Source: a virus (taxonomy: Duplodnaviria; Heunggongvirae; Uroviricota; Caudoviricetes). From it: 39,723 nucleotides of DNA. Below the pieces are notes generated by a model. It was not told where the DNA came from. It ran no database searches and saw only the letters and a program-made list of their open reading frames with translations. The translations under genes and the position numbers were made by a program. Of the stretch, positions 16,865-25,520 are shown piece by piece; within the stretch, counting starts at the first letter, position 1; every line of letters begins with the position of its first letter. The DNA lies in the IMG/VR virus record IMGVR_UViG_2537562231_000011; one strand, 5' to 3'.

Positions 16865-17287
16865 ATGGCTGAAACACAGATGAGCATGTTTGGTGACAGC
16901 GAACAGCTGCACGCGCTGATTGACCGTCTGGATGATATTCCTGATGATGAGCTGAAAAAGAACTGGCCCGGCACGCTGCGGGACCTGGTTGATGTGATCA
17001 GTGCTGAACTGCACCGTCAGGGGATTGAACCTGCTCAGGCGGGAATGCTTGCCCGTAAGGTTGCAGCCGCACAGGCCGGGTACATGGGCGGGCGTGGTTA
17101 TTATCTCCCGGTCGGTGAATCCCTTTTCACCGAACTGCGCAATAATGAAATTTTTTCCCGCTGGAGCCAGGGCGAAAAAATTGAAACCCTGCGCCGCCAC
17201 TACCAGATGTCAGAGACGCAGATTTACTCCGTTATCCGCAACCAGCGTCGCCTGCATCAGGAACGCACGCAGCCACGGCTTTTCTGA
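16865..17287 (+). CDS. Mor/C-family transcriptional activator
   Basis: 140 aa; C-terminal HTH and overall pattern consistent with the Mu Mor/C family; lies immediately upstream of the lysis cassette. Confidence 0.7.
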   Translation: MAETQMSMFGDSEQLHALIDRLDDIPDDELKKNWPGTLRDLVDVISAELHRQGIEPAQAGMLARKVAAAQAGYMGGRGYYLPVGESLFTELRNNEIFSRWSQGEKIETLRRHYQMSETQIYSVIRNQRRLHQERTQPRLF

Positions 17288-21844: not shown

Positions 21845-23433
21845 TGGGACGCATAATTGATCTTGACGGAAAACCTTTCTCCTTTGACCCGGAGATGCAA
21901 AGTACCGCGCTGGATATTCCGCAGATTGCCAGCCGTTATGTTGAGCATCCCGCCTCGGGTATCACCCCGAACCGGGCGGCGCAGTGCCTTCGCGGGGCTG
22001 AACGTGGCGATCTGATTGCCCAGTCCGATCTGGCGGCTGACATTGAAGAAAAGGACACCCACCTTTTTGCGGAGCTGGGCAAGCGACGTCTTGCCATTCA
22101 GGGGGTGCCATGGAGCATTGAGCCGCCACCGAACGCCAGCGCGAATGAGAAAAAGGACGCGGAAATGCTCGACGAATATCTGCATTCCGCCGACTGGTTT
22201 GATGCCATGTTATTTGATGCCACCGATGCCATCCTGAAGGGCTATTCCTGCATGGAGATTGAGCACGGGATGCTCGGTAAGATGCACATCATCCGCGCCA
22301 TCCGATGGCGTGACAGCGGGCATTTCTGCCTTAACCCGGATGATTTGAGCGAACTGCGGCTGCGTGACGGCAGCCATGCCGGGGTGGCGTTTCAGCCCTT
22401 TGGCTGGATAGTGCATCAGTCGCGTTCACGCACCGGCTACGGTGGTGCGACGGGGCTTGTCAGAACGCTTATCTGGCCGTTCATTTTCAAAAACTATTCC
22501 GTGCGCGATCTGGCGGAATTTCTGGAGGTGTACGGCCTGCCAATGAAGGTCGGGAAATACCCGTCCGGGGCAACACCGGAGCAGAAAAGTGCCCTGATGC
22601 GGGCGGTGATGGATATCGGGCGACGTACAGGCGGGATCATCCCGGCCGGGATGTCGCTGGAGTTTCAGGCGGCAGCGAACGGTCAGGCCGATCCGTTTGA
22701 AACCATGATTTCGTGGGGTGAGCGTTCCATCTCCAAAGCAATACTCGGCGGCACGCTGACCACAGAAGCCGGAGACAAAGGCGCGCGCTCGCTGGGTGAG
22801 GTGCATAACGAGGTGCGCCGGGAAATCAGGGATTCTGATTTACGCCAGCTGGCTGCAACCCTGAACCGCGATCTGGTGTATCCGCTGTATGCCCTGAACA
22901 CCGCCCACGCCATTGATATCCGTCGCCTGCCGCGTATCTGTTTCCAGACCAAAGAACCGGGGGATATCACCAAAATAGCCAGTGCGGTGATGCAACTCAG
23001 TGCGGGGATGGATATTCCTGATCCCTGGGTACGGGATCAGACCGGTATTCCACAGCCCACGCCCGGTGAAGCCATATTCCGTGTCCGTCAGAGCAGTAAT
23101 GAACCGGCCATGCCTGACAGGGAAACGCTACCGGAAAAACAGGAAAAGACAGAACAGACGGCGCTTTCAGCCCGACTGCCGGAAGCGAAAAACACGCCGC
23201 GTGATGAACTGGACGACATGGGGGACGCGGTGCCTGCCCGCCGCTTACAGGAGGCCATCGATCCGGTGCTGGAGCCGGTCATTGATGTCATCAGAACGCG
23301 GGGGCTGGCGGAGGCACTGGCAGACCTGCCTGCCCTTTACCGTGAAATGGATGATTCCCGCCTGATGACGCTGCTCAGTGATGCCATGTTTGCTGCGGAA
23401 ATGAAGGGGATGCTGGATGGCTCAGGGGATTGA
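21835..23433 (+). CDS. Portal protein (Mu gp29 / DUF935-like)
   Basis: 532 aa, size and position; GTG start overlapping the terminase end. Confidence 0.8.
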   Translation: MLVVGRIIDLDGKPFSFDPEMQSTALDIPQIASRYVEHPASGITPNRAAQCLRGAERGDLIAQSDLAADIEEKDTHLFAELGKRRLAIQGVPWSIEPPPNASANEKKDAEMLDEYLHSADWFDAMLFDATDAILKGYSCMEIEHGMLGKMHIIRAIRWRDSGHFCLNPDDLSELRLRDGSHAGVAFQPFGWIVHQSRSRTGYGGATGLVRTLIWPFIFKNYSVRDLAEFLEVYGLPMKVGKYPSGATPEQKSALMRAVMDIGRRTGGIIPAGMSLEFQAAANGQADPFETMISWGERSISKAILGGTLTTEAGDKGARSLGEVHNEVRREIRDSDLRQLAATLNRDLVYPLYALNTAHAIDIRRLPRICFQTKEPGDITKIASAVMQLSAGMDIPDPWVRDQTGIPQPTPGEAIFRVRQSSNEPAMPDRETLPEKQEKTEQTALSARLPEAKNTPRDELDDMGDAVPARRLQEAIDPVLEPVIDVIRTRGLAEALADLPALYREMDDSRLMTLLSDAMFAAEMKGMLDGSGD

Positions 23434-24748
23434 TTTAGGTTATGCCGCCACGCTTCCCTCAAAAGAGACGGTGGCATACTTCCGCGCCAAAGGGGCGCAT
23501 ATCAGCTGGAACTGGTTCGAAACAGACGCGGATGTTCATGCCCGCTCATTCACGGCAGCAAAAACGGCACGGCTGGATGTGGTAACCACATTACAGGCCG
23601 AAGTGCAGCGGGCCATTGATGAGGGGATTTCACAGAAAGAATTTATCCGCACACTGACGCCACGCCTGCAAAAGCTGGGATGGTGGGGAAAGCAGATTGT
23701 GGTGGACAGCGACGGTAACGCGGAAGAAGTGCAGCAGGGCAGTCCCCGTCGTCTGGCGCTGATTTACAACGTGAACACCCGTGTGGCTTACAATGCCGGG
23801 CGTTACACGCAGATGATGAACAACACGGACACGCATCCGTTCTGGCAGTATGTGGCGGTCATGGACAGCCGTACCCGCCCGTCGCATTCCGCCCTTAACG
23901 GTCTGGTATTCCGCTATGACGATCCGTTCTGGAAAACACACTACCCGCCCAATGGCTGGAACTGCCGCTGCCGTGTGCGGCCATTGTCTCAGGCCCGTCT
24001 GGATGCAATGGGGTTATCCGTTTCATCCGGTGAGGATCATCTCTCCACCCGCAATGTTGAGGCTGGCGTGGATAAACAGACCGGAGAAGTCAGAGAAATG
24101 CCGGTGACCACATATTCAGATGGCGCCAGAACCATGACACCGGATGTGGGCTGGTCATATAACCCCGGCTCGGCAGCGTTCGGCACAGACCAGGCGCTGA
24201 TCCGCAAACTGATCGAGGTGAAAAGCCCGGCGTTACGGGAAATGGTGGTTCAGGAGATGAACAACAGCCCGGAGCGGCAGCTGGCGTTCCGCATCTGGGC
24301 AAAAAACATCATGCAGACCCGGCGAGGTGGTAACGATATCCGCACGCTGGGCTTTATGACTGAAAGCATTGCGCAGGCAGTGGAAAGCCGGACGGGAACG
24401 CCACCGGCCCGCCTGCTGGCGATGAGCGGTAAAAATGTGCTCCATGCGGACAGTGTGAAACATCAGAATGACGGCATCGCTCTGACGCCGGAGGACTTCG
24501 GGCGCTTACCGGCAATGCTGGCAAGGCCAAAAGCGGTACTGTGGGACAAACGGCACAACAATCTGATGTATATCGTGGAAAATCAGGATGGCAGTGTGCA
24601 GATTGCCGTTAATGCACCGTACAGTCTGAAACGTCAGCCCGACAAACTGGATGTGATTGTGAATGCTTACCGGGTTATCAATATGGATAAGCTGAAATCG
24701 GATATCCGGGGCGGAATGCTTGAGGTGCTGGAAGGACAAATTGATTAA
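23417..24748 (+). CDS. Head morphogenesis protein (Mu F / gp30-like)
   Basis: 443 aa; motifs RTRPSH...NGWNCRCR typical of the phage head morphogenesis (F-like) family. Confidence 0.8.
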   Translation: MAQGIDLGYAATLPSKETVAYFRAKGAHISWNWFETDADVHARSFTAAKTARLDVVTTLQAEVQRAIDEGISQKEFIRTLTPRLQKLGWWGKQIVVDSDGNAEEVQQGSPRRLALIYNVNTRVAYNAGRYTQMMNNTDTHPFWQYVAVMDSRTRPSHSALNGLVFRYDDPFWKTHYPPNGWNCRCRVRPLSQARLDAMGLSVSSGEDHLSTRNVEAGVDKQTGEVREMPVTTYSDGARTMTPDVGWSYNPGSAAFGTDQALIRKLIEVKSPALREMVVQEMNNSPERQLAFRIWAKNIMQTRRGGNDIRTLGFMTESIAQAVESRTGTPPARLLAMSGKNVLHADSVKHQNDGIALTPEDFGRLPAMLARPKAVLWDKRHNNLMYIVENQDGSVQIAVNAPYSLKRQPDKLDVIVNAYRVINMDKLKSDIRGGMLEVLEGQID

Positions 24749-24749
24749 C

Positions 24750-24830
24750 GGTCAGTGGCGGGGGTCGAACCCGCATACATGATCCACCCGGAGGCAGGCA
24801 CCGACTTTACCAGTTAAGCGTACACTGACC
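24750..24830 (-). ncRNA. tRNA-like structured element (T-arm and D-arm consensus, no anticodon stem); function unknown
   Basis: On the minus strand: 9-bp closing stem, D-arm-like GCTT-AACTGGTA-AAGT and T-arm GCGGG-TTCGACC-CCCGC. I could not form an anticodon stem. On the plus strand it is followed by TGTTTATTTTAT. Confidence 0.25.
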
Positions 24831-24869
24831 GCCTGTTTATTTTATATTCATCCTTTATGCGGAGGCAAT

Positions 24870-25343
24870 ATGTCATCCATTGATGCAGCTGTCGTTGTTG
24901 ACGTTACGCGTCTCCAGCGAGTGTTTGCCCGGCTTCAGTTTGTGGGCGGCGGAAAAGACCTGGCCCGCAGTGTGGCGGCGAGTCTTCTGTCATCGTCAGA
25001 AATGGCGTTTGAGCAGGAAAAAGAGCCGGATGGTGAACGCTGGCATGACTGGTCAGATCCTTACCGTGAGTGGCGTACCCGTAAGGGATACACGCCCGGC
25101 AAAATCCTGACGCTGAACGGCGATCTGGCCCGCCGCCTGACCACGGATTATGGCGATACCTGGGCGCTGATTGGATCAAATGAACCTTATGCAGCCATTC
25201 ATCAGTGGGGTGGCCTGCCTGGTATGCCACCGGGACCGGCGGCCATTGGCGCACGTCCGTATATGGGCTTTGATCAGGTGGCAGAACAGGAGATCATGGA
25301 CGAAATCAGAAAACGCTTTAAAAAGGCCACAGAAACGCCGTAA
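24870..25343 (+). CDS. Virion morphogenesis protein (Mu G / gp31-like)
   Basis: 157 aa with GCGGAGG ribosome-binding site; position between F-like and I-like genes. Confidence 0.7.
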   Translation: MSSIDAAVVVDVTRLQRVFARLQFVGGGKDLARSVAASLLSSSEMAFEQEKEPDGERWHDWSDPYREWRTRKGYTPGKILTLNGDLARRLTTDYGDTWALIGSNEPYAAIHQWGGLPGMPPGPAAIGARPYMGFDQVAEQEIMDEIRKRFKKATETP

Positions 25344-25520
25344 TGGTTTAAGGTATGCAAACGTATTACCTTACCCCCTTCAGGCGCGTGTCGTGATTTT
25401 CTAACCTGTATTTAACGGGCTTTAAAATCTGCGTGAAGCGCCTTTCTCATTCCCCCCCTGTCAGCACTTTCTGAAGTCCCGCAAAACCAGCCCCAAAAAT
25501 ACCCGGCTTATGCTGCCGGT
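25344..25520 (+). promoter_or_regulatory. G-I intergenic region: candidate late promoter and candidate strong gyrase site
   Basis: 177 bp with no credible ORF; C-rich tracts (CCCCCCC, CAGCCCCAAAAATACCC); about 18.1 kb from the inferred left end, the position of the Mu centre. Confidence 0.35.

Follow-up and report, generated by a model that had tools for sequence, protein, structure and literature searches.

A small gene on the minus strand of a Mu-like prophage, inserted between the F-like and G-like head genes, specifies an RNA that has the shape of a tRNA and no anticodon. We analysed it in a 39,723-nt stretch of viral DNA (IMG/VR record IMGVR_UViG_2537562231_000011), hereafter called the window, and we conclude that it is under selection and probably independently expressed, a conclusion that we hold much more firmly than the reading of its product as a tRNA mimic. 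The promoter and the RNA gene fully occupy the 121-nt spacer between the F-like stop codon and the G-like start codon, and in the annotated late region of the prophage this tRNA-like element is the sole minus-strand feature. Its parts and neighbours are listed below; both ends of the RNA are predictions, on which our own covariance model, the extension of the closing stem and the promoter spacing agree.

23417-24748, plus strand: F-like head morphogenesis gene, 443 aa
24521-24745, plus strand: 3' end of the F-like gene (last ~75 codons), in linkage with the RNA gene
24747-24833, minus strand: predicted full RNA of ~87 nt, from the predicted start (nt -3/-4) to the last paired base (nt 76)
24747-24757, minus strand: 3' strand of the acceptor stem, CACUGAC (nt 66-72, 24757-24751), then C73, G74, U75 and U76
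24758-24774, minus strand: T arm, GCGGG-UUCGACC-CCCGC
24775-24778, minus strand: variable loop, GUAU
24779-24801, minus strand: central arm of type A, replacing the anticodon arm
24802-24822, minus strand: U8, A9, extra C (24820) and D arm
24823-24829, minus strand: 5' strand of the acceptor stem, GUCAGUG (nt 1-7), the helix being extended by 24830-24833 (nt -1 to -4)
24839-24844, minus strand: predicted -10 box TAAAAT, 9 nt ahead of base +1
24863-24868, minus strand: -35-like hexamer TTGCCT, from a promoter scan
24870-25343, plus strand: G-like virion morphogenesis gene, 157 aa, with its ATG at 24870

The initial annotation, made from the sequence of the window, had proposed a 9-bp closing stem, a D arm and a T arm, all of which are borne out. 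The closing helix comprises nine Watson-Crick and two wobble pairs (11 bp in total), with a 7-bp acceptor stem, GUCAGUG (24829-24823) with CACUGAC (24757-24751), extended by the flanks through the pairs G:C, C:G, G.U and G.U (24833-24830 with 24750-24747); the last two paired bases of the RNA, 24747-24748, are part of the F-like stop codon. The D arm consists of the stem GCUU/AAGU and the loop AACUGGUA (24819-24804), a region that harbours the core nucleotides A14, A15, G18, G19 and A21, and the extra C after A9 (24820) pairs with G 24802, which brings the D stem to 5 bp. The T arm (24774-24758) is complete, and the last base of the variable loop, U48, is able to pair with A15. Nucleotides of the tRNA tertiary core are present throughout, namely U8, A14, A15 with U48, G18, G19 and the UUCGA T loop with G53:C61. 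Among the hallmarks of canonical tRNAs, we thus found the 7-bp acceptor stem, the T-loop motif in its T arm and the D arm with G18 and G19, but not the 5-bp anticodon stem with a 7-nt loop carrying U33 and the anticodon.

At the place of the anticodon arm, the base pairs G.U, U-A and G-C (24801-24799 with 24779-24781) are followed by bulges and a distal stem, which is capped on the minus strand by a UCCG tetraloop (24792-24789). The initial annotation had found no anticodon stem there; a bulged arm does form, but the 7-nt anticodon loop is indeed absent. The folding energy of the window's arm, which is of type A, is no better than that of shuffled sequence (z = -0.16), and across the types z ranges from -0.03 to -2.7, which is weak for most; support for the central arm was taken from the comparison with relatives rather than from energy. 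All 17 arms tested fold into a single hairpin in a common register, and their terminal loops are tetraloops or have 5-14 nt, depending on the variant.

ARAGORN detected no tRNA or tmRNA in the window and no tRNA in the loci of 13 relatives, and a default Rfam scan of the whole window reported nothing. The tRNA model RF00005, whose gathering score is 29, matched 24750-24829 of the minus strand with 31 bits (E = 8e-5), in a permissive local scan of 301 nt only. This score was reached only by skipping the anticodon arm, 18 model positions being replaced by 24 unmodelled bases. Rejection by ARAGORN and the skipped arm support the original view that the element is not a normal tRNA. The other families of the tRNA clan in Rfam scored below tRNA, and no Rfam family besides tRNA matched the element in a scan up to E = 10; the other match in the scanned stretch, to STnc480 (E = 4.8), lies within the adjacent promoter spacer.

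Using a covariance model built from the relatives, we obtained 89.6 bits for the window copy (24748-24831), the next best score being 11.5 bits. This score indicates that the element is more than a chance resemblance, as do the compensatory changes described below. Our model is specific, as a genuine tRNA-Ile of the island described below went unreported at E up to 0.1, and it recovered an extra copy, in the metagenome contig L072, that the search pattern had missed. It found no second copy near the window phage's own mor gene.

We collected 26 distinct variants by pattern scans and G-protein-anchored scans of viral contigs, metagenomes and one genome per species, and aligned them to a cloverleaf of 22 pairs specified by hand. 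As much of the D arm and of the T loop was prescribed by the pattern used for retrieval, their invariance is partly built in, and one of the 26 rows, L074, is a probable genuine tRNA-Val. In this alignment, 92.8% of the stem cells pair and 14 of the 22 pairs show compensatory changes, values that none of 500 shuffles reached, with the proviso that related sequences inflate covariation counts and that shuffle counts are not probabilities. When the partners were slid sideways, pairing amounted to only 38-55%. We read these values as selection on the structure, and RNAalifold, unaided, likewise arrives at the acceptor, D and T stems.

Each of the four helices is supported by compensatory changes. 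Such changes affect eight of the nine pairs of the closing helix, including pair -1:73, which occurs as G:C, U:A, G.U or A:U, and pair -2:74, which occurs as A:U, C:G or U.G. The pairing between the extra C and the G after the D stem is held in 25 of the 26 sequences, and the D-stem pair 16:25 alternates between U-A and C-G. The base of the central arm is 94.9% paired, with compensatory changes in two of its three pairs (C-G with U-A, and A-U with G-C), and the T arm is 99.2% paired, two of its pairs being compensatory (GCGGG/CCCGC, GUGGG/CCCAC, GCAGG/CCUGC). A15 is invariant, and the final base of the variable loop is U in all 26 sequences. The alignment also identifies the RNA strand: it contains 53 G-U cells versus 2 A-C cells, an excess that designates the minus strand, and its stems pair at 92.8% when read as minus strand versus 83.9% as plus strand.

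All E. coli-type Mu-like copies harbour a TAAAAT box (TACAAT in one variant) 8-10 nt before base +1, in a spacer that has otherwise diverged. The Edwardsiella-type variant L063 has no clear -10 box, and distant copies have boxes of their own, TATACT in L072 and TACTAT ahead of the island arrays. The promoter is predicted as a consensus match, of a kind that arises by chance at ~0.9 per kb. A gap of 8 nt between the -10 box and base +1 goes with a helix that extends to nt -2, gaps of 9 or 10 nt with extension to -4, and a gap of 14 nt with extension to -7. As the gap tracks the extent of the helix, a start at the seventh base after the box would fall within one base of the first paired nucleotide. 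The -35-like TTGCCT partly coincides, on the opposite strand, with the G-like ribosome-binding site (GGAGG, 24861-24865), and its conservation is inseparable from that of this site; the hexamer is also present in L062, a locus without the RNA gene, and it must therefore pre-date the insertion. A scan for terminator-like sites found none on either strand. The coincidence of the predicted start with the helix end, the covariation of pairs -1:73 and -2:74 and the absence of an encoded CCA from every variant lead us to infer a primary transcript with both ends sealed in a 9-11 bp helix, which argues against ordinary tRNA maturation and charging.

A 106-nt stretch covering the element was found in 228 of 5,426 complete E. 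coli genomes (~4%), the hosts including many O157:H7, O26 and O111 pathogens. Among the matches listed, many E. coli copies bear the label 'tRNA-OTHER' from the NCBI pipeline and others are unannotated, and the match lies at or beside an F-like gene in 59 of 60 rows. The tRNA-OTHER label is missing from some E. coli copies with a single difference from the window (99.1% identity). We opened five Mu-like loci, and in all five the match sits in the spacer between F and G, on the strand opposite to these two genes; a sixth locus opened, H64, has a different element. Two Stx-phage records also carry the element, within an inserted Mu-like phage. Scanning one genome per species with the strict pattern yielded nothing, and a looser pattern yielded Edwardsiella anguillarum and Citrobacter braakii only, so that either the family is narrow or its detection depends on the strain that represents the species.

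Among the Mu-like loci that we fetched, all those whose G protein is at least 61% identical to that of the window have the element, except L062, in which the F stop codon abuts the G ribosome-binding site. It is also absent from Mu, in which F and G overlap by 4 nt, and D108 and SfMu look the same as Mu in this respect. Its absence from L062 and Mu identifies the element as a ~108-nt insertion in one lineage. Like phage morons, it is missing from close relatives at the same junction and has its own conserved, predicted promoter.

Minor variations occur within the family. The T-loop base A58 is changed to C (UUCGCCC) in L007 and 10 other loci of type A, as well as in the island b copies L002 and L083, and G57 is changed to A in two loci, L042 and L043. 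The 1.1-kb metagenome contig L072 contains two members (120-196 and 754-832), each behind a TATACT box, with part of an F-like C-terminus and a duplicated G-like start between them; the cassette has apparently been duplicated or rearranged there. We rejected L074, also found as L082, as a member of the family. On this high-GC metagenome contig, ARAGORN identifies positions 1452-1526 as a tRNA-Val(CAC), probably a real one, which also has an extra C after A9 and a 5-bp D stem. It is preceded, 8 nt upstream, by a putative promoter TTGACA-N16-TAAGAT, and its neighbours match no Pfam or PHROG family.

The central arms fall into discrete types, which we labelled A to H, plus the island types. Between two phage clades, type A elements are 96-98% identical and their flanking F/G DNA 57-85%; type B elements are 95% identical and their flanks 60-83%, although part of this within-type conservation could reflect recent transfer of the element alone rather than selection. 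Differences among the type A elements compared lie in loops or in the leader, or convert a pair to G-U. The converse is also seen, arm types differing between phages with 92-100% identity elsewhere. Within one clade, the 3' stretch of F and the RNA gene are only 50-75% identical, versus 92-100% for their surroundings, and this divergent patch runs from ~240 nt inside the 3' end of F to the start of G. The F tail and the RNA gene therefore appear to diverge together, as one exchangeable cassette.

The C-terminal part of the F-like protein is itself mosaic. Among clade I phages the protein is 91% identical overall and diverged after residue 369, and its tail has a hypervariable 10-residue segment before a conserved GGxLExLEG end. 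In two clades, this segment of ~10 residues co-segregates with the arm type (NMDKLKSDI with type A, NKFDIEKAIE with type B). Types E and F, however, have one common F tail and different arms, and between clades the RNA is 96-98% identical versus 69-73% for the adjacent F coding DNA. We therefore read the association between tail and arm as linkage.

Members of the family were also found outside Mu-like phages, on an integrative island of ~8 kb that lies next to a tRNA-Ile gene and ends in two or three family members in tandem, with different arm types. Examples are L094 (1500-9400, E. coli JNEC-KY179), L079, L083, L087 and L089. The island codes for an integrase, an HTH regulator, Ash, two Icd-like proteins, a DUF4222 protein, a RepA-family helicase, SSB, PerC and Mor, and that of L089 additionally carries a Bro-N gene. 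Its RNA copies point the same way as mor, and the strand opposite them is empty. Mor (48% identity; 16964-17266 in the window) and this RNA are all that the island and the window phage have in common. The island looks like a phage satellite. Downstream copies of its arrays lack their own promoter, and they must therefore be cut from a longer transcript. Between mor and the first tRNA-like copy of L002 (4273-4338) lie arrays of 10-bp tandem repeats, with the units ATTTCACCTG and TCACCTTCTT, which could be iterons for the RepA helicase. The NCBI label 'tRNA-Tyr' on the island b copy is probably an artefact, the GUA lying in a palindromic loop of 4-6 nt and ARAGORN being negative.

How does this RNA compare with known systems? 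It resembles canonical tRNAs (RF00005) in its 7-bp acceptor stem, U8/A9, G18/G19, 4-nt variable loop with U48, UUCGA and G53:C61, and it resembles phage tRNAs in being carried by mobile elements singly or in short arrays. It departs from canonical tRNAs in lacking the 7-nt anticodon loop and the anticodon, in having a 5-bp D stem with an extra base after A9, and in pairing nt 73-74 (up to nt 76) with its leader, without an encoded CCA. It is not a tRNA-Sec, a tRNA with an 8+5 bp acceptor/T stack, a 6-bp D stem with a 4-nt loop, a long variable arm and the anticodon UCA, as its D stem has 5 bp with an 8-nt loop, its variable loop has 4 nt and there is no anticodon.

tmRNA and the Y-RNA-like YrlA are non-decoding RNAs that keep the tRNA elbow and the acceptor/T stack and are recognised by tRNA-binding proteins. 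tmRNA has a G3.U70 pair for charging with alanine, a reduced D arm and a coding segment. The element, in contrast, has C:G or U:A at 3:70, a complete D arm and no coding part in its ~87 nt, and with the negative result of ARAGORN this rules out a tmRNA. In YrlA, the RNA ends are located at the other side of the fold, and there are a Ro-binding helix and an adjacent rsr gene, none of which was seen for the element. We rejected this identity, there being no Rfam match, the neighbours being the head genes F and G, and the sequence of the closing helix not being conserved among variants.

The C4 RNAs of P1 and P7 and the CI RNA of P4 (RF01695) are structured immunity RNAs of phages and satellites, ~70-90 nt long, with variable loops as discrete specificity types, and they act through base-pairing with nearby target sites. 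The element is similar in size and also comes in discrete types, and the island with the arrays carries P4/P1-like genes (ash, Icd-like). Unlike these RNAs, it has no complementary site beyond chance in the window, several of its arms have plain tetraloops, and RF01695 did not match it up to E = 10; we therefore set aside this identity as well. Pseudo-ToxI and RNA anti-CRISPRs are phage RNAs with known targets that imitate an antitoxin RNA or CRISPR repeats. The element would similarly engage a defence protein by resembling a host RNA, but the molecule imitated would be tRNA, and the likeness is an analogy of mechanism only.

Of the three options in the initial annotation, a tRNA-derived remnant, a tRNA mimic and a structured 3' element on the plus strand, the mimic is the best fit. 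Our working proposal, which we regard as plausible yet tentative, is that the element produces an independently transcribed, end-sealed tRNA mimic that acts in trans, with the arm setting its specificity. The small, self-contained gene is inserted between the head genes of one Mu-like lineage, and the host sigma-70 RNA polymerase would start transcription at the conserved TAAAAT promoter. The first transcribed bases would pair just beyond the 3' side of the acceptor stem to form a closed terminal helix of 9-11 bp, leaving the RNA without a free 3' tail and without CCA. The predicted product is a stable RNA of ~87 nt whose 5' end carries a triphosphate and is part of the terminal helix; it would adopt the L shape of a tRNA. 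With a rod-like hairpin in place of its anticodon arm, such an RNA cannot decode, and its sealed ends make amino-acid charging improbable.

The mimic would occupy a protein that reads tRNA by shape, without itself being consumed as a substrate, and the hypervariable arm would decide which partner is engaged. The most likely partners, by analogy, are tRNA-directed nucleases of host defence systems or bacteriocins, for which the RNA might serve as a decoy; this role is suggested by its shape, by the missing anticodon, by the existence of discrete arm types and by its presence on mobile elements. The sequence holds no pointer to a particular nuclease or defence system. Two features fit such a mimic poorly: the plain, stable tetraloops on several arms are an odd way to mimic an anticodon loop, and the window-type arm folds no better than shuffled sequence. 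More speculatively, and doubtful in our view, the arm types might be specificity alleles, each sealed mimic neutralising, or being sensed by, a different immune nuclease or toxin that reads tRNA shape, with the island stacking types to widen coverage. Bolder still is the idea that the island is a satellite of Mu-like phages, whose RNAs and Mor homologue would interfere with the helper.

An improbable alternative is that the RNA matures like a tRNA, through RNase P, 3' trimming and addition of CCA, and is charged by an anticodon-independent synthetase, so that a non-decoding charged RNA would donate or sequester an amino acid or compete with a real tRNA. In favour of this view, the element has canonical acceptor and T arms and canonical core nucleotides. 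HisRS would be the candidate enzyme because a G-1:C73 pair, which defines tRNA-His, is present in the window and in 12 of the 26 distinct variants. Excision from a longer transcript, which the downstream copies of the island arrays need, would also fit, and some tRNAs of phage T4 likewise lack an encoded CCA. However, type B has U and the island copies have A at position 73, which means that pairing is conserved and not the G:C identity, and covariation of -2:74 is unexpected if nt 74 is trimmed and replaced by C74. The coincidence of the predicted start with the first paired base of the extended helix, and the lack of an encoded CCA in the whole family, also speak against charging.

It is likewise quite unlikely that the gene acts in cis on the late operon, either by pairing of its RNA with the F-G spacer of the late mRNA or by interference of its convergent promoter with late transcription, thereby tuning or silencing the G-like and downstream head genes. 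Its location invites such a view: it is alone on the minus strand of the late region, it spans the whole spacer together with its promoter, and the latter overlaps the G ribosome-binding site. An antisense RNA, however, always matches its target and is free to drift, yet the types are 95-98% conserved across clades, and the copies of the island form co-directional tandem arrays with an empty opposite strand. The tertiary nucleotides of tRNA are of no obvious antisense use, and the fold would probably bury the D and T loops. The retention of a tRNA core, the conservation of types across clades and island arrays that are antisense to nothing thus argue against a purely cis-antisense role. A window-wide search for sequences complementary to the RNA yielded 10-11-mers only, in about the number expected by chance, which does not support a base-pairing small-RNA model. 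One such 11-mer, GGCAGGCACCG, which could pair with the 5' side of the central arm, has two further occurrences on the minus strand of the window, at 673 and 23228, about as many as chance would give.

A partnership with the virion, in which the RNA would bind an assembly protein, namely the C-terminal tail of the F-like minor head protein, and be packaged or associated with assembly, is very improbable. It could account for the location of the gene in the head-morphogenesis module and for the co-segregation of the F-tail segment with the arm type in two clades. This association is explained by simple linkage, in view of the single F tail shared by types E and F and of the far stronger conservation of the RNA than of the adjacent F DNA between clades; moreover, the island has these RNAs and no F gene, and Mu assembles without any such RNA.

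That the element is a functionless relic, i.e. a decaying tRNA gene or an integration scar, is extremely unlikely. Standard tRNA finders do fail on it or return an undetermined call, and some lineages have the T-loop mutations A58C and G57A. Nevertheless, the remnant considered in the initial annotation is at odds with conservation far above that of the flanks, with compensatory changes in all helices, with substitutions in type A being confined to loops, leader or changes to G-U pairs, with a conserved promoter placed at the helix end, and with the presence of the family in two different kinds of mobile elements. Finally, a structured 3' element or terminator of the F transcript, as envisaged for the plus strand, has a nearly negligible likelihood: this strand does fold at -29.9 kcal/mol and a T-rich run follows, but the fold is not better than that of shuffled sequence (z = -1.16), G-U cells far outnumber A-C cells, no terminator-like site was found, and the T-rich run corresponds to the conserved -10 box of the minus-strand promoter, read on the other strand.

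Public databases already flag this tRNA-like non-coding RNA, as 'tRNA-OTHER'. Literature searches, including one with the exact sequence, did not return its description, nor that of conserved, non-decoding tRNA look-alikes under strong selection, with exchangeable arms and arrays on a second mobile element; reports on the Sp18 prophage, on Pas small RNAs and on cleavage of tRNA-Tyr by Septu proved unrelated. In E. coli genomes, including those of O157:H7, O26 and O111 strains, these genes are currently unexplained 'tRNA-OTHER' entries or are unannotated. Genuine phage tRNAs are known to make up for host tRNAs that defence nucleases have destroyed, but without an anticodon the element cannot replace a cleaved tRNA in translation. 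Should the mimics act as decoys, RNA mimicry would be a further layer of the conflict between phages and bacteria over tRNA, and the RNAs would provide compact natural tRNA scaffolds with swappable arms.

A role at the DNA level, as an attachment site or a gyrase-related site, was set aside, as selection is visible on RNA pairs, including G-U pairs; covariation and the G-U bias argue against it, as they do against a relic and a plus-strand element. Of note, the 177-nt spacer that separates the G-like gene from the protease gene (25344-25520 in the window) lies where Mu has its strong gyrase site; the Mu record NC_000929 places the cut site 20 nt after G.
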